64,000 nucleotides of DNA from Lophium mytilinum (Eukaryota): NCBI GenBank assembly GCA_010093605.1, contig MU004185.1, forward strand, positions 1,385,334 through 1,449,333, in the 5' to 3' direction. Below are positions 9,669-56,960 of this stretch, in pieces; positions within the stretch are counted from its first letter, which is position 1; every line of letters begins with the position of its first letter. The notes below the pieces were generated by a model. The model was given only the letters and a program-made list of their open reading frames with translations. It was not told the DNA's origin and searched no databases. The translations under genes were made by a program, and so were the position numbers.

Positions 9669-10233
9669 GCCACTTGTTAGATGCTACTCTATCCTAATCA
9701 ACGTGCCTCAACTAAAAGATTCCTTCGAACACATAGCTTCAAGATGACGCAGGTACCGTTGATTAGAAAAGACGTCCGTGAGCTGACTACACTTGCGGAA
9801 CCTACAGCAGCCCCTAATTGTAGTAGTCTGTACGACTTTATCCACATCATTTCAGGATAGCGCTAACTGAGGTGATCTGGCGATATTACCATTTGCTCTA
9901 ATGCAGAACCTCCATCTCGCTCAAAATTGTAAAAGTCAATCAAGGCTTTTTATAAAGTTCCAGACACTTCCACACAAGATCGTAGCTTGCTCAATTTTCT
10001 TGAGGACGGCACGAGCCCTTCTTGAGGTTAACGGATTCAACTACCATAACTCTAATCTATAGATTTCTGTAGTGAATCAGATTGTATTCAAGCGATATGG
10101 TGAGCTGATGTCAGGGTCCAAAAGGCCCAAGCTTCGACCTCACCCCTGTGTTCAGCCTCGCAGATCATAAGCAACATCTCAATTGAGCTGCACACAAGAC
10201 GGCCGTCAGATTCATCCTTCAGCCCCATTCTCA

Positions 10234-11493
10234 ATGGCTCTCCCCTCCTCGCAAGTGCCTTCGCTAGGCCATGTTCTCGTAACGGGCGGCTGCGGCTTCC
10301 TGGGCCACCACATCGTCGATCTCCTGCTGGAACGTCACCCTCAGACCCGCGTCTCCGTACTCGACCTCCGCACGACCTCGAACCGCAGCTCGAACCCCAA
10401 TGTCTTCTACTACGATGGCGATCTCACAGACAAGGATGCGACCAAGGCGCTCTTCCAGAAATTGAAGCCTGAGGTGGTGATACATACCGCAAGCCCTCAC
10501 CACAGTGCAAAAAATGATATCCTGTATAAGGTGAATGTGGATGGGACGAAGGCGCTACTGGAGGTGTCCCAAGAGACGGGTGTCAAGACCTTCGTGCATA
10601 CGAGCTCTGCAAGCGTCATACATAACCCCGAGGAAGAACTAGTCAATGCGGACGAGACATATCCATTGATCGCGGGAAAGGAACAACCTGAATATTATAC
10701 CAGCACAAAGGTGGGTAACATCCCCTGTTATTCATTGCGCATTCGCTGTGGTATTGCTGGCTTCTACTAGTCTCTCGTAAAGCACATTACATTGTCATAG
10801 GTATCTCATACGTAGAGCGCTAATTGAACACAACATCAGGTCTGGGCCGAATCAGCCGTCCTCGCTGCCAACCGTACTCCTGCCTCTTTCCTCACCTGCG
10901 CTATCCGTCCTGCTGGAATATTCGGCGAAGGCGACGTCCAATTGCTGCCCAAGATGCTGAGCGCCTACTTCAAAGGCCAGCATAAGTTTCAGATCGGCGA
11001 GAATAAGAACCTCTTCGATTTCACCTACGTGAAGAACGTCGCTCACGCGCATCTCCTCGCCGTTGTCGCTCTCCTTACTACCCACAAAAAGCTTCCATCG
11101 ATTCCTCTCGACACAGAGCGGGTGGATGGTGAGGCATTCCTAGTCACCAACGGCCAGCCAGTATACTTCTGGGACTTTCCTCGCCAGGCATGGAAGGAGG
11201 CGGGCAACACGCTGCCTATTGAATCCGTCTGGCACTTGAGTTTCGGGACTATGATGGTGGTGGGAAGCTTGCTGGAGTCGGCATGCTGGCTACTGGGAAA
11301 GACGCCGAATCTCAACAGGCAACAGGTTCAATACAGCTGCTGGACGCGATATTACAACATTGACAAGGCGAAAAGGAGGTTGGGTTACAAACCTATCGTG
11401 CCGCTCGAGGAGGGGATCAAGAGGGGAGTGAGGTACATCTTAGAGCAAAGGGAGAAAGAGGCAAACGGGCTTGCAGCGAAGAAGAACTTATAA
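10234..11493 (+). CDS. ERG26: Sterol C-3 dehydrogenase/C-4 decarboxylase (3-beta-HSD family)
   Basis: VLVTGGCGFLG NAD-binding motif, YTSTK (YxxxK), IRPAGIFGEGD, FDFTYVKNVAHAH, GEAFLVTN. Intron 10711-10839. Confidence 0.9.
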
Positions 11494-11856
11494 GCTCTAC
11501 TATACGAATTTAGTGTTATGACAATCGGCTTGCTTGTAATGTACGTAATGGGAAGGGTGTGTGTGTGCATAGTACGTTCTACATCTCTATTACCCGTATA
11601 ATGCTAGTATGTATGTCATAGAAAAGCATTTCTTTGGGGAAATTCATCGCGTGTCTGTGAAAGCTCTTACGCATCGAATTTCAAGAAAGTAATATAGTTA
11701 TCATTCAACACTGTTCTAACGCCATTTCAACTTTGTGAGAGCTCCAGCATCAAAATACTACCCCGGATCCTACGTATGTACGTAAAAATGACAGAGGGTG
11801 ATGTGTATCCCCTTCTCTACCTCTTCTTTCGATTCTGTGCCGCGACTTGACTATTA

Positions 11857-13164
11857 TTAAACATTGCCAGTGATCTTGCGCTTGACGATACAGCCCAGGT
11901 TCTGTCTTTTCCTCCTACCCCCACTCGTCCAGTCGATCGGTCCCGCGGGTGTCTCAGGCGTCTCAATCTCCTCTTTCTCAAGCTTGCGCTTCTTCGTGAA
12001 AGCTTGGCGAGAGAGCTCAACTACTATTGAGAGATCGTTCACCTTGACTTTCAAAGCATACGGGAAACCCAGCTTGTTCTTCAACGCCGCCTCACCACTG
12101 GCCGCAGACTTGTCCAACAACTTGTCAGACAACACCTACTCGCCCACCCTAGACTCGGCCTTAACTCGGTATGCCTCCTCTCAATCCATCTCACCTCTTG
12201 CTCACCATGACCCTAGACCACGCCCACAACACCTTCCCCATCTCCAAGTACAGCAAGCGCACCGCTACTCCCAAACGCCGCCTCAAAGTCGTACATTGAC
12301 GACATCATCGATGCCAGGCGCAACATAGATGGAAAACCTATCGCAACCAATCTTGCCAACGAACTCCGCGTACTGCTCATGTCGGCGGAGCCCAACGCTC
12401 CAAGGGCCTACCCAGGGATACCCCACGATCTGCAAGAGAGCCTCTCGAGTCTGGCAGAGACGATGGAGGAATGCTACGGAAAACATATCACAAATCGTAA
12501 TGTCAATCAATTGTACCAAAATATCTTACTAACGGTGTCCACAAGCATGCCGCAGAAGACAAATGTTGGAAACATCAACACAACTGCGGCCGCCGACCCG
12601 TACCTCCAAGCCAACCCAGCGATCAAAGGAGCCTTTCTCCAGTTCGTTAGTGACATGCGGGCGAACCACAGCGGGGACCCGGCAAAGTTTGTGGCCCCGA
12701 ACGGGAACCCAAACGCCACATTGTGCATCGTAGGCTCCTATTTCCCAGATCATGCGTTCCCCCTCCTCGCGCTCAAGACGATCTAGGCGCTCCTCCTCTG
12801 TCTCCTCGGCGAGCTCAGCCTCACGCCACGGCTCAGACTTACGCTTTGCCCCACTCTCGCACTCGAAATCCCCGTGCTTAGGATCTGTGCAGAGAGTGAT
12901 CTGAGTAGAGCAGCCAGTACAGCGGATGTAGAGTTAGATTACATCAATGTTAAAGTATTTTTCCCTAGAAATTTCTTTTTAAGTATTAAATTTCTATCCT
13001 TTATAGATATATTCCCCGCAAGAGTTGCATTTTATAGAGAATAGGGCTATAATATAGGAGGTTAGTAGTTTCTTAGCTAACTTAGGACCAGAGTTAGTCT
13101 TTCTAATCATAGCTGGGTCGAAATCGGGAGGATAGTACTTCGAGATGACCTTTCGTTCGGCCAT
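11857..13164 (-). pseudogene. YJU2: Disrupted copy of spliceosomal factor Yju2/Cwc16/Cwf16
   Basis: Hand translation from ATG 13164: [17 protein letters not shown]...[21 protein letters not shown]...VI*LYIRCTGCSTQITLCTDPKHGDFECESGAKRKSEPWREAELAEETEEERLDRLEREEGER. In-frame stops at 12994-6, 12979-81 and 12934-6. The 12754-13164 part is secure; assignment of 11857-12200 as the 3' part is tentative. Confidence 0.85.
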
Positions 13165-13920
13165 GGTGCCGTGTGATGAAGCGAGCTTGCGAAGGTAGTC
13201 GACTAGGAAAGGGTTTGTTGGGTGGTCGGGCTTTACGACCTTTGGTGGGGGTGTCGAAATGGACGTTACGAGCTTCTAGTGGTGGTATTGAGACACCGTG
13301 TAAGCTTGTGGTTTCGAGATGGAAATCTGGAGGTGCTGGCTACCTATTTCAGGAAAGTGCGAAATCACAGCCCCATTAGAGCGCCTTGTGTGTTATTAGT
13401 CTTCTTGGTAGCGATCTGGACCTAATACGGGGCCCCGTGGGGAACGGTAGGCTTGGCGACAGACCGCGGTCTGGTTTCCTCGTCCCACAAAAACAACCTC
13501 ATCATCTCAGCATCTACTCGCTGGTAGCTTCCTCACATGCGCCGTACGTTCGAGAGTGGACTGATTCCTGACCTCACTCACCCACTTCTTGAACTGTCAC
13601 GACCAATATCAAGCAGTTGCTCTAGGGGGTTGATGCTGCTACCGTGGAAGTATGAGCTTTCGTGCTGCAGGACGTGTATAGCTCAGTCCCTGGTAGCGGT
13701 AAGAGATTCTGGAGTAAACCATGGCTGGCCCAAGGTCTGGGGAATGAGGGGTCTTTAAGAGCTGTGTTTTCTTCATTCCTTTCGTTATCTCCACAACCAT
13801 TACCTCTCAAAATTAAAATTCCCATCCTAAGTCTTCTATCTCACAAAAAGCACAATTTTTATCATAACCAACTATCTATTTTCTAAGAAAACAAGTCTAC
13901 CCACAAAGCCACACCGCGCC

Positions 13921-14550
13921 ATGCCTCCTCCCGCAGCACGCACACGCACACTCTCCCTCTCCCTCGCCCACGGAATCTCCCTTCAGACATCCGACCAGCC
14001 CGCCTCCCCGCCCCCCTCCAGCACAACTACTCCCACCACTCCGCGCGCCCCCCGCTGGTCCCACCGCTTCTCCTTCGGCCGCCTGACCGCAGAGATCGCG
14101 GCACTGCCCCTCGACCCTATCCCATATTATCCGAGCTCGGACGCTATTGCCATGCCCGCAAGCACAGCTCCGACCACAGCAACCCCACCCACGTTCGCCT
14201 CCATGGACTGGGCACTGCCTACTTACGACGAGCACTACTCGCCTACCGATAACACTAGGGTGCGGAGACGGGAGAGCGACTGGCCCACCCGCCGGGAGAT
14301 TGAGGCCGAGGCCGGGTTTGCGATTGTGTATCCGCATGAGGCGTCGCAGGGGTCGTCGGTGGAGTATCGCGAGGTGTCGGGGGAGGAGGGGGAGAGTGAT
14401 GATGAGGCGGTGCAGGTTGGGACGGTGCAGGATGTGGGGCGGAAGAGGCGGGGGAGTAGTGTGGTGCAGGGGCTGAGGAAGGGGTTGGGATGGGTGAGGA
14501 GGTTGAGTTCGGGGACTGGGCGGAAGGGGAGTGTTGATGCGGTGGAGTGA
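13921..14550 (+). CDS. Hypothetical low-complexity protein (209 aa)
   Basis: Single ORF with ATG in gccATG context after an AT-rich leader. Pro/Thr-rich N-half, acidic patch, and RRGS/RKGS basic motifs. No family recognised. Confidence 0.55.
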   Translation: MPPPAARTRTLSLSLAHGISLQTSDQPASPPPSSTTTPTTPRAPRWSHRFSFGRLTAEIAALPLDPIPYYPSSDAIAMPASTAPTTATPPTFASMDWALPTYDEHYSPTDNTRVRRRESDWPTRREIEAEAGFAIVYPHEASQGSSVEYREVSGEEGESDDEAVQVGTVQDVGRKRRGSSVVQGLRKGLGWVRRLSSGTGRKGSVDAVE

Positions 14551-14838
14551 GGGTTGGGGTTGGCGTGGAGAGCGAGGGATACCACTCGCGACGTCGTTCG
14601 CTTGAGTCGGCTTTGTACAGCTGTTGGCTCACCTACCTACGGTCTTTAATTTTTAAAAGGTTGCTTCAGCTTCGGTTGTGTAGTCTCATCCCAAACGAAC
14701 ACCAAGACGGATCTGGTTGATTGATGGCAAAGTTGAATGTTTTGCTAAACTAGACATATGACGGCATTGAACCCCCCGTGACACTGTGGCAATACTTTAC
14801 AAGTCCTTCGACTACCAGTGCTTATCCTTTCCATTACT

Positions 14839-52724: not shown

Positions 52725-52768
52725 GGATCCGGGCAGGCCGATTGCGTAGGCCGATTGATCACGTGCTC
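52725..52768 (+). repeat. Left TIR of MULE
   Basis: ggatccgggcaggccgattgcgtaggccgattgatcacgtgctc; reverse complement of 56917-56960 with one G/A difference. Confidence 0.92.
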
Positions 52769-55700
52769 TTGTAAACAAACTTAACCGAATTTTATAATTT
52801 TTATAAAATTATTAAATTAAACTTAATACTAATTAAATATAAATAACTATTAAATTATATAGCGCCCTCTTTAAATTCTATAGCCTTAATATTCTAATAT
52901 ATATACTTACCTCTAGTAAATTTAGAGAACTTAGGCCCTTTAGAAGTAGCCGGGCGCTTTCTATTTTATACTATATTTTTTATTATTTTTTTTACCTTTC
53001 TATTCTATTTCTTTCTATTTAATAAGGGTTCTTCTATATAGTTCTTATTTTTATAGTTAGGCTTATTATTATTAATACTAAGAATTATCTTATCTAGGCC
53101 CTAATTATCTATTTTATTATATCTATAGTAAATTCTATTTATATAAGTTAAATAAGGACCCCCTATAACTATAGTATATCTAGAAGCTAGAGAGGGGGTA
53201 GATATAGATAAGATTATCTATAAAATAAGATAAGAATCTCTATTAGAAGTGCCCTATAGTAGTAGCTTACTATCTAGATAGTTAAAGAATATTATATTAT
53301 TAATAACTTTCTTCTCTATTTACTTTTCTTTCTTTTTATTATACTTTATAGAGTACTCTACCTTATTAAAAGGCTCTATAGCCTTAGTAGTATTATCTAC
53401 TATATTTTTATTATTTTTATCTAGCTTCTAAAGCTCTATATAGTTATATTATAATAGATTAAATTAAGGTTAGTAAGTAGCCTTATAGGCGGCCTAAGTA
53501 GCTCTTTTTTTTTTAGCCTTCTTTTCTTTATATACTATAATATTAGCTAAACTCTTAGCTAACTCTATACTAGTTAAAGCCCTCTAATTTACTTTACTAT
53601 ACTTCTTTATAGGTTATAGGTAATAAACTAATAAAGGTAGAATAGTAAACTCTATATTACTTAGTACTAGCTAGAGTTTACCTTTTCTCTTTAAATATAA
53701 GGTAATTTAGCCCTCTAGCCCTTCTAACTTAGTAGTAATATAGCTAACGTTATTATCTAGAAGCCTATTAACTTAATTAATAAGGTAGAGGGCTATATTA
53801 TATATTCTATTAATTTTAATAGCCTAATTTAATACTAGATTACTCTCTATTATAATACTATCTATAAAATAAGGCGCCTATTCTTTCTTAGCTATTATAT
53901 TCTATACTAGCTTCTAGCAAGGGTAAATAAGGCCTAATAGAATAGCCTTATCTATAAGAACGCTTTAAGAGAGGAGATAGAGGTATAGAAGACTAAATTA
54001 GTAAGAATTATTATACTTATAATTAGATAGAGACTAATCTTTATCTATATATAAAGCTAATATAGCTAATAATATATTCTTAGCCTTATAGAGTAAATTA
54101 AATACCCTCTTAAGTATAAAGTATATAATTTTCCTATTTAATTTAGTAAAGTAATAGCTAAAATAATTAAGTATAATTTTTCTTAGAAGTATAATCTTAT
54201 ATAAATATTTCTTAGCTACTAACTTACTAAATAGAATATTTATCTATATCTATAAATTTTACACGCACCTTTTAAGACTTAATTAGGGGTTTATAAAGTA
54301 CTTTAAGGCGTAATTTATACCTTTAAAATATATAGAGCCGGCTATACTAAAATTTAAAAGCTTTCTAGTAAGGTATAAGTTAAGAAAGTTAAATAAGAAA
54401 ATAAGATAAGGCTAGTAGTATAATAGGTACACCGCCTATAATATAATATATATAGAGTATATATAGACTACCTTTATATATTTTTAGTTTATAGTAAGTA
54501 TATAGATAAAAATAGGTAGGCTATAGAGCCTTATATATAAGCTTACGCCTACCTATATATAAGATTAATATAGAAGGTATACTAAGTATACCTCTATATA
54601 CTAAATTTTTATAATATACCTATCTTTAATATGCGTAGAGTATATAGATAATAAAAATAATAGAAAAATTTAAAAATATAATAAAAAAAGCTCTAAAACT
54701 TACTAGATATAGACTATTATTAAGTACTTCTCTTTAGCTATATATATATTCTTAAACTAGGGCTTATTAACCTCTTAGAGCTTATCTAGAATTATTTTAT
54801 AATTTTTTTTAAGGTTCTCTATAGTTAATAACTTTATATATAGCTAGAATAACTTCTTTACCTCTATATAATATATAGTAGTATAGTTTTTACCTTTAGT
54901 AATACTCTTATTAATTTACTTTTTTATTACCTTTACTCCGTGCTACTAATAGAGCTAGAGAATAATACTAAGAAACTACCTCTATAGTAGCGCGGCTCTT
55001 AACCCTTTTCTAAAGTCTACTATAATTACTTTAGACCTATAATCTTTAGGCTAAATAGAACCCTCTATATACTCTAATATAAAGCTCTAGAAAATAGCGT
55101 CCTTCTCCTTTTAAAGAAAGAATATAGCTAAAAAGAAGCGGTTTATATTAAATACGCTAGTAATAATTCTAAGCTTTAATTTAGCCTAATTTATATTAAA
55201 AGTGGCGTCTATTTAGTAGTAATAATTAGTAATAAATCTCTAGCTAAAGGCCTCTATATTCTTAGTCTAGAAAACTATTTACTAGAGATTATAGGCTATA
55301 TATTTATCTATATATAGATTAACTTTATATATATATTATAAGTAGTATTTAAAGCCTATAGTATAAAGGTAGAGCTCTAAAATAAAGAGGGTATTCTTCT
55401 TTATATACTAGTTAGATAGAAGAGTATATAGGTCTTACGCTAGATTATAGTACTTTTTTTTTAATATACTTAGCTCTTAGAGGTTTAATTAACGCCTAGT
55501 AGTTTTATATATTTTACCTATTCTTTATAATTTAATTGCCCTCTCTATAGCCTTATAGGCCTCTAGCTAGTAATTTTAGTAGTAAATATATATAAATAGA
55601 TTTAGTATTATTCTATAAGCCTTATTATCTTCCTCTAAGTATTTTCTATAGTAATCTAGGTACGTAATTATAGAAATCTAGGCTATTTCTATACAGCCTT

Positions 55701-56916
55701 TATATATTTATATCTAACTAATATATATACTCTATAAGTAATTAAACTTACCTATAATAGTTCTCTTCTTCTACTAACTATTCTTCTACTTTAATTTACT
55801 TAATTAGTAATAGTTCTAGGTTTCTAAACTATAGTATTTATACACTATATAGATTACCTAAACTTTTAATATCTTAGTACTAGATCTAGAGTCTCTAACT
55901 ACTAGAAAGCCTTTAAAAAAGAAGTAATCTATATAGCGCTTAATACCTTTCTTCTATAAGTTAAACTTCTTACCCTTAATAGGTTCTAGAAGGTAGTAAA
56001 TAGATATTTAATTAATTACTTTTTATATAGAGGTAATAAGATTTAAATATAACTAAATATCTAGAATCTAAACGCGGCGCTATAGAGGTAGTATAAGAGA
56101 GCCTAATTATAGCTATAGTTTATCTAAAGAGGGGCGTGTAGGTCTAGAAGTATAGTATTAAGAATTAATAAAGTTATAGTATTTTTAAGTAGATAATAAC
56201 TTAATAGATTATAGAAGTAGAGGAAACTTATTAGAGTACCTAGGTAGACTACTTTTAGTATAAATAGTAGGGGTAGAAGTTTTTAGAGGTATAGAACTAG
56301 AGCCCTATATACTTAGCTAATAAGAGAGAATATATAGAGGTATAAGAGGGGTTAATTTAATTAGAATTAGCCTTTTTTTATAGCTAGATATATAGCTATA
56401 TAGCTATATATAATACTAAATAATATAAATAGGCTAAATAAAGGGCTAATTAAAATAGAAAGGCTATATAGAAGGCTGCATAAATAGTAAGTATAGTAAT
56501 AGAACTATATAAAGTAGTAGAGGAGGCCTTTTAATTAAAGATTTATATAAAGAAAGAGGGCTTCTATTATTATCTAATAATAGATTAGATATTATAAATA
56601 TAGAGAATAGATAGAAAATAAAAATAGAAGAGAGAGAAGCTATTTAATATTAAAATTAATAAAATTAGTAAGGATTTCTATAATAAATATACCTATATAG
56701 GCGCGTTAAGGGCGCAGTTCCCTACTATTAATTAATAATATATTCTTATAGCTAACTAACTAAAAATATACTAGATATAATATATATATATATAGCTATT
56801 AATTTATTATATTAGATTAAAGTTGCGATAATTATTAGTGGAGTTGTAATTTTTTGTATAGGGCTATTCTAACATGGCCGTGTTTTAATTTTGTGAAGTT
56901 TATAATATAGGCGAGC

Positions 56917-56960
56917 GAGCACGTGATTAATCGGCCTACGCAATCGGCCTGCCCGGATCC
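56917..56960 (-). repeat. Right TIR of MULE
   Basis: gagcacgtgattaatcggcctacgcaatcggcctgcccggatcc. Confidence 0.92.

Follow-up and report, generated by a model that had tools for sequence, protein, structure and literature searches.

A YJU2 pseudogene in Lophium mytilinum with a short RIP-type hypermutated patch and an antisense insertion

RIP, which mutates duplicated sequence by C>T changes, is a standard brake on gene duplication (PMC12543289). The rule given for Neurospora is 80% identity over 400 bp, and RIP mutates both copies of a repeat (PMC3017866, PMC10294615). When repeats are closely placed, RIP can make do with 155-220 bp of perfect homology or with 36% interspersed identity over 500 bp, and in Neurospora constructs the mutations span the extent of the homology (PMC4858203). 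Endogenous genes are among the recorded targets: in Stagonospora nodorum, RIP-degraded gene copies have been described in a Rad5/Rad6 cluster and in histone H3 repeats (PMC3017866). In the Dothideomycete Zymoseptoria tritici, a duplication was lost in 11 of 23 tetrads (PMC10294615). RIP has also been reported in Cenococcum geophilum, a relative of L. mytilinum (PMC12910237), and in the part of that paper drawn on here L. mytilinum itself appears only for transposon ages and as an annotation source.

Here, we describe a copy of the gene for the first-step splicing factor YJU2 (PMC11585973), located in a window of 64,000 nucleotides of L. mytilinum DNA, the whole stretch that was analysed and to which the positions below refer unless a contig is named. 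The locus is almost certainly a dead YJU2 copy bearing a genuine patch of C>T/G>A changes. A search of largely open-access main texts returned nothing on YJU2/CWC16 duplicates or on this locus.

The YJU2 pseudogene and its relatives in the genome

The 5' piece of the pseudogene occupies 12754-13164 on the minus strand and comprises codons 1-137, the zinc-finger N-terminal domain, interrupted by three stops in the frame that begins with the ATG at 13164: TAG at codon 57 (12996-12994), TAA at codon 62 (12981-12979), and TAA at codon 77 (12936-12934). With the stops read as X, a profile search matched this piece to PF04502 (Saf4_Yju2) at E=5.3e-35 and 122 bits against a cut-off of 27.8, and the motifs by which the original prediction had recognised a Yju2 N-terminus are present. 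It had also placed the stops where orthologues carry Arg, and Arg indeed stands at all three positions in each of 122 other YJU2 proteins, a set made up of the best 119 of 4653 database matches, one cluster member and the genome's two open copies. The four zinc cysteines of the two CxxC motifs (Cys 46, 49, 82 and 85), each found in 122 of 122 homologues, are retained. At the stop positions the nearest open copy reads CGG, CGC and CGG; stops 1 and 3 are explained by transitions alone, and stop 2 requires a CGG or CGA ancestor or one transversion. With three stops and about 60 codons replaced, the pseudogene has no intact reading frame.

Two DNA runs cover 10000-14800 without any difference, and as they are possibly the source of the assembly they do not count as independent. 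One contig of 3401 nt with four GT..AG joints, obtained from a run on a different sample in a separate study that we take to be RNA, has no differing letter and spans the stops. Because the same letters recur in an RNA contig from another study, an assembly error is unlikely. The contig continues through the neighbouring 3-beta-HSD family gene (ERG26-type; 10234-11493, plus strand, one intron), which we take to be ERG26, a single contig being no proof of a single transcript.

The genome searched (43.4 Mb in 49 contigs) holds four PF04502 loci: the pseudogene, an open copy on the same contig (C5), a YJU2 gene on contig C7 and a gene on contig C10. The C7 gene is an open YJU2 of 276 codons in a single ORF. 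The C10 gene is a distant family member that appears to be of the Saf4 type; the pseudogene is 64-69% identical to the two YJU2 copies and 31% to this gene, which places it on the YJU2 rather than the Saf4/YJU2B side. The open C5 copy (C5:1511069-1511824, minus strand, 252 codons) lies 113 kb from the pseudogene on the same strand. The database record of its 252-aa protein is that of L. mytilinum itself, followed by ordinary YJU2 proteins at 56-72% identity, and among chains of spliceosome structures it matched human YJU2 at E=2e-46, YJU2B at 3e-16 and Saf4 at 2e-11. This copy evolves fast, departs from residues that 121 other proteins keep invariant, and has no close database relative; as judged from sequence, it may be a lineage-specific spliceosome paralogue.

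The pseudogene and the open C5 copy are sisters: both carry 10 residues that few or none of 121 other YJU2 proteins have, and a quick tree, with both as long branches, groups them at an SH-aLRT of 96. A clade of the sister copy and the C7 gene was neither supported nor rejected (AU p=0.074). Identity between pseudogene and sister is 68% overall and 179 of 233 (77%) outside the patch, where 60% of silent sites differ over 77 codons (dS about 1.2, dN/dS 0.11); between the two open genes dN/dS is 0.14. The YJU2-derived sequence outside the patch contains no stop and no frameshift. Because a dS of about 1.2 is coupled to a dN/dS of 0.11 and no lesion lies outside the patch, the pseudogene copy was long functional and its sister is no fresh duplicate, contrary to the simple recent duplication that had been supposed. 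The intact copy expected elsewhere does exist, in the form of the two open YJU2 genes on C7 and C5, and the PF04502 match and the genome copies together bear out a duplicated host gene rather than a transposon. The RIP scars that an intact copy might have borne are found on neither gene: over the region equivalent to the patch, GC is 0.57-0.58, with TpA 6-8, CpA+TpG 19-25 and CpG 16-18, and there is no TpA excess or loss of CpA and CpG.

The C7 gene stands head to head with a TPR gene (CDC16-like), which we take to be CDC16. The same head-to-head pair of YJU2 and a CDC16-like gene is present in 41 of 80 fungal metagenome loci and thus constitutes a conserved gene pair; of the 80 metagenomic YJU2 loci, many of them short, 0 have ERG26 or any other neighbour that was tested for the C5 copies. 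Because the CDC16 neighbour recurs at these loci and the neighbours of the C5 copies do not, we regard C7 as the ancestral YJU2 site, and the synteny beside ERG26 that had been proposed as a check concerns a site that is not ancestral. The readable part of the pseudogene is intronless, as had been pointed out; this is uninformative, the ancestral copy being itself a single ORF. As regards a processed pseudogene, the N-terminal frame is uninterrupted in 65 of 80 metagenomic YJU2 loci and the C7 parent is intron-free. A segmental duplication that included neighbouring genes was rejected: window positions 1-30000 match the sister region in the YJU2 pieces and one 56-base stretch only.

The hypermutated patch and the search for its partner

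Alignment to the sister copy reveals a RIP-type hypermutated patch of 178 bp at 12934-13111, with a sharp edge at 12934 and a softer one towards 13134; its limits come from a likelihood scan of the alignment that rewards C>T/G>A changes and are post hoc, which makes p-values optimistic. Within it, 47 of the 99 sites that are C or G in the sister read T or A (24 C>T, 23 G>A), compared with 15 of 135 outside, and the ratio of C>T/G>A to reverse changes is 47:5 inside and 15:12 outside. Transversion rates are equal, at 11.0% in the patch and 11.6% outside. The original prediction had described TpA-rich, CpA-poor damage of a transition-biased, RIP-like kind, confined to about 12930-13110 between normal flanks. 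Both points survive when those limits are kept and the sister is aligned under protein guidance: the ratio is 43:6 within them, 12:11 in the 3' flank and 4:1 in the 5' flank.

Base composition agrees. The patch has a GC of 0.29, 28 TpA, 8 CpA+TpG and 1 CpG, against 0.58, 8, 19 and 18 in the same region of the sister, and the drop in GC with gain of TpA and loss of CpA and CpG is localised to about 12900-13150. One large repeat excepted, no other 200-base stretch in the window is as rich in TpA. In 814 kb of genome, scanned with a filter that was tuned on the patch, six such islands were found, namely three of 4-6 kb, two microsatellites and the patch itself.

CpA is the most frequently mutated context of the patch, at 26 of 31 sites when the neighbouring base is taken from the pseudogene and 10 of 14 when it is taken from the sister. 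In a control repeat of the same window (52.7-57 kb), 111 of 136 CpA sites are mutated, and its copies differ almost solely by transitions (366, against 4 transversions), a finding that bears on RIP activity in the species. CpG and CpT are both mutated more in the patch than in this repeat; for CpT the counts are 15 of 36 against 51 of 719, the patch figure being inflated by ordinary divergence. Of the 19 transversions in the patch, 15 fall at third codon positions and therefore predate the death of the gene. The damage was thought to cover the most conserved part of the gene, which does not describe its extent: the patch takes in a variable linker (codons 18-31) as well as the first zinc motif, and it stops right before a block that shares 28 of 30 bases with the sister and is not hypermutated.

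At 52725-56960 the window holds an AT-rich element of about 4.2 kb, bounded by terminal inverted repeats of about 44-55 bp. Contigs C22 and C3 carry full-length copies at 91% identity, nearly all differences being transitions, and short copies retaining both ends are present on C1 and C2; the element looks like a RIP-mutated DNA transposon.

Neither a 2.2-kb query nor the patch by itself found a closer copy in DNA searches of the genome, and at the DNA, protein and family levels all genome matches were confined to the pseudogene, its sister, the C7 gene and the Saf4-type gene. Three transition-blind patterns of 35 places matched only the patch itself and the sister, or the patch itself and chance-level sequences; the extra matches numbered 3 and 2 where controls gave 1 and 2, and were attributed to chance. 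Nothing but the sister copy emerged from purine/pyrimidine scans of 214 kb and 814 kb. The two DNA runs contained no further similar contig, a weak result in that the sister copy itself is absent from those contigs. Direct or inverted repeats enclosing the patch were limited, in 11500-14200, to short pairs at chance level. Leakage of RIP from a neighbouring element was rejected, the nearest RIP-mutated element being 40 kb away. On another contig, at C6:1065161-1066100, two adjacent AT-rich microsatellite blocks of TA and CTAT/ATAG resemble inverted copies of each other.

The genome contains three loci with C5-methyltransferase domains, one on C4 and two on C9, which we guess from size and layout to be of the RID, DIM-2 and DNMT5 types. 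The patch has the excess of C>T/G>A changes without excess transversions, and the same CpA preference as the genome's repeats, that mark duplicates mutated by RIP. The classical requirement of a duplicate with at least 80% identity over at least 400 bp finds no counterpart in this possibly incomplete assembly, in which the nearest copy is 68% identical overall and 77% outside the patch, nor does a second mutated copy, since the sister and ancestral copies keep a GC of 0.57-0.58 together with their CpA and CpG, a result that is silent on a lost partner. The mutation spectrum is that of RIP but the partner is missing from this assembly; we infer RIP, from the spectrum, as the most likely cause of the hypermutation.

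The antisense insert and the spliced plus-strand RNA

Death by RIP as sole cause, as first proposed, is not the whole account. YJU2 similarity returns on the same strand at about 12020-11925 (sister residues 199-237, 45% identity over 40 aa), within a 3' piece placed by protein match at 11857-12030 (minus strand, upstream edge approximate) that has normal GC and a frame that stays open until a stop in a comparable place. Between the two YJU2 pieces, the alignment places a foreign insert of about 720 bp (12031-12753, plus strand, low edge approximate), which replaces about 60 codons (sister 139-198) and whose high edge abuts the YJU2 homology at 12753/12754. An open frame of 189 codons in the insert (12217-12786, plus strand) has a sole homologue among 1.84 billion representatives, an uncharacterised 229-aa protein of Mytilinidion resinicola (E=1.2e-5, 32-34% identity), and the alignment with it terminates at 12753, directly abutting the YJU2 piece. 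No Pfam family matched the frame, no longer homologue of the insert or further relative of the Mytilinidion protein was found, and the Atlas gave no usable match for the insert, its homologue matching only unnamed clusters (0.91). The genome contains no second copy of this orphan gene, which is present solely as the truncated fragment 12217-12753; its original locus seems to be lost or unassembled. The pseudogene carries two lesions, the hypermutated patch and the antisense insertion of an orphan-gene fragment.

The RNA contig shows that the plus strand of the locus is spliced. A GT..AG intron of 48 nt in the insert (12169-12216, plus strand) is absent from the contig, as is one of 49 nt (12497-12545, plus strand) in sequence that still aligns to the Mytilinidion homologue and whose removal shifts the homologous frame. 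A third GT..AG intron, of 57 nt (12730-12786, plus strand), crosses the junction between insert and YJU2, its donor lying in orphan-gene coding sequence and its acceptor in antisense YJU2 sequence, and for this reason it should be younger than the insertion, a reading based on one homologue and one contig. The last exon (12787-13838, plus strand) runs antisense over the YJU2 5' piece and the patch. The spliced RNA contains only short frames, of 139 and 155 codons. The longer is a predicted chimeric frame (12471-13044, plus strand, spliced) made up of a short out-of-frame start, 62 orphan codons and 85 antisense-YJU2 codons, and ends at a stop within the mutated patch; its antisense part is also open in the sister copy, so its openness may be mechanical. 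The plus-strand RNA is probably a read-through or non-coding RNA with cryptic splicing.

Origin of the patch and comparison with known systems

An old duplication would have placed a YJU2 copy on contig C5, and a second duplication of that copy would have generated the two same-strand copies that are now 113 kb apart. Both were long under purifying selection, as their substitution rates show, until the copy beside ERG26 died recently through two lesions visible at the locus: an antisense orphan-gene fragment replaced about 60 middle codons, and a stretch of 178 bp was hypermutated by C>T/G>A changes on both strands, so that three invariant Arg codons became stops. The extent of RIP would have been set by a short near-identical duplicate of this stretch alone, which may since have segregated away, been deleted, or be absent from the assembly. 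As it stands the locus would yield no YJU2 protein, its plus strand being transcribed and spliced via cryptic introns. YJU2 is essential, and the ancestral C7 gene presumably provides its function in the cell.

That a short near-identical duplicate of the patch, since lost or unassembled, triggered RIP is a proposition we hold at roughly even strength. A length of 178 bp is below the rule of 400 bp and 80% identity, yet about 40% of C/G sites are mutated on both strands, which is heavy for a near-threshold repeat; the absence of the partner from all genome searches and a CpT share above that of the control repeat also count against it, and the lost duplications of Z. tritici went before RIP, without mutations (PMC10294615). 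RIP might instead have read the imperfect, interspersed homology of two old paralogues, the diverged sister 113 kb away being the trigger, in which case mutated sister alleles would have been purged by selection and recombination and those of the dispensable copy would have drifted to fixation. With transitions ignored, the sister is indeed the only sequence of the assembly related to the patch: it matches a purine/pyrimidine pattern of 35 places with 0 mismatches, it scores 87-90 of 100 in 100-base windows where the rest of 814 kb reaches at most 78, and identity before mutation could have been as high as 0.88-0.97 in 60-base windows around 13071-12967. RIP does sense 36% interspersed identity in constructs, in which, however, the repeats were closely placed and not 113 kb apart (PMC4858203), and RIP is described as striking both copies (PMC3017866). 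The sister has no scar (GC 0.58, TpA 8, CpA+TpG 19, CpG 18) although silent changes would have been tolerable, the 28/30-identical block beyond the edge escaped hypermutation, and the patch and its surroundings have diverged equally in transversions, with outside identity at 179 of 233 (77%). We consider the sister an unlikely trigger. Another candidate is a gene-conversion tract of about 180 bp, imported into an unmutated allele from a fully RIP-mutated allele or ectopic copy that arose in another lineage after duplication of the whole gene. Such a tract would account for heavy mutation of both strands in a short stretch, the sharp edge at 12934, the clean flanks and the absent partner, but two border exchanges with a donor diverged by about 20-25% would be required, which mismatch repair should oppose; moreover the assembly contains no donor, and one edge is soft. 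Conversion tracts in fungi have medians of 284-950 bp, of which 178 bp is short but still in range (PMC10294615). On balance we find such an import rather improbable.

A further reading involves no repeat at all. Methylation following convergent transcription has been described in promoter regions, where it is dynamic (PMC3764098), and at this locus an antisense transcript across the promoter and 5' part of YJU2 could have led, by convergent transcription and cytosine methylation of the DIM-2 type, to a scar of deamination. The spliced plus-strand RNA is antisense to the patch, a 1173-aa open frame with a C5-methyltransferase domain (putatively DIM-2) is present, CpG and CpT are also heavily mutated, and no partner is required. 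Against this, 100-base windows over 13151-13800 have a GC of 0.46-0.59, so that no depletion is seen upstream of 13164; CpA, as in RIP, remains the context most often mutated; and no minus-strand transcript was seen; moreover, we know of no report of such methylation leaving fixed patches of mutation, and we rate its involvement as quite improbable. Finally, the stops might be assembly errors, as the two DNA runs may be the assembly's own source, or the gene might be alive and rescued by sexual-stage RNA editing, A-to-I correction of stop codons being known in fungi (PMC10776026). The spliced contig, from another sample and study that may not include the sexual stage, differs at none of its 3401 nt, stops included. 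Editing as described turns TAG into TGG, with TAA as an uneditable control, and is reported in Sordariomycetes and Pezizomycetes (PMC10776026). Here one TAG and two TAA stand at invariant Arg positions in a split gene that lacks about 60 codons, and first and second codon positions of the patch carry 25 further or coincident C>T/G>A changes. Error or editing is already largely refuted and is, in our judgement, highly improbable.

We doubt, without dismissing it, that RIP-type hypermutation occurred here in the absence of any near-identical repeat, whether through a paralogue of about 77-80% identity 113 kb away, with one-sided scars, or through antisense transcription alone. Were either trigger real, old diverged paralogues would not be safe from RIP-like killing, and the common assumption that RIP spares paralogues less than about 80% identical would have to be revised. 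If a short duplicate was the trigger, as we prefer, the locus is a tidy, ordinary instance of RIP on a host-gene copy. In either event, the lineage long kept three YJU2-type genes under purifying selection despite RIP, and the fast-evolving extra copy is still open; the short, heavy scar with no visible partner offers a natural test of the minimal homology for RIP outside laboratory constructs; and the intron across the rearrangement junction, composed of former coding and antisense YJU2 sequence, can be dated as younger than the insertion.

RIP-killed copies of host genes are already known, and the oddity here is the missing near-identical partner. Compared with the YJU2/CWC16 (CCDC94) family, PF04502, the pseudogene is alike in its N-terminal peptide, four zinc cysteines and downstream helix region and differs by three nonsense codons and the replacement of about 60 codons, and the C5 paralogue lineage is fast-evolving and altered at otherwise invariant positions. 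The A-to-I-restored pseudogenes of Fusarium graminearum are similar in being conserved genes with in-frame stops, but the L. mytilinum locus differs in its two TAA stops, in having Arg rather than Trp positions, in its many missense changes, in its split gene, and in belonging to a fungal class for which the part of PMC10776026 drawn on reports no editing. The S. nodorum cases (PMC3017866) likewise involve host genes and no transposon, inactivated by C>T/G>A changes with a CpA preference; those are multi-copy families with their partners present, whereas here a single patch of 178 bp has as its nearest relative an unscarred copy of 77% identity and a dS of about 1.2. In the Neurospora constructs with short or interspersed homology the repeats are close and both present, whereas here nothing but the diverged sister is found within 214 kb; in its scale, however, the patch resembles these constructs, in which the mutated stretch is likewise on the order of 155-220 bp and has defined edges (PMC4858203).
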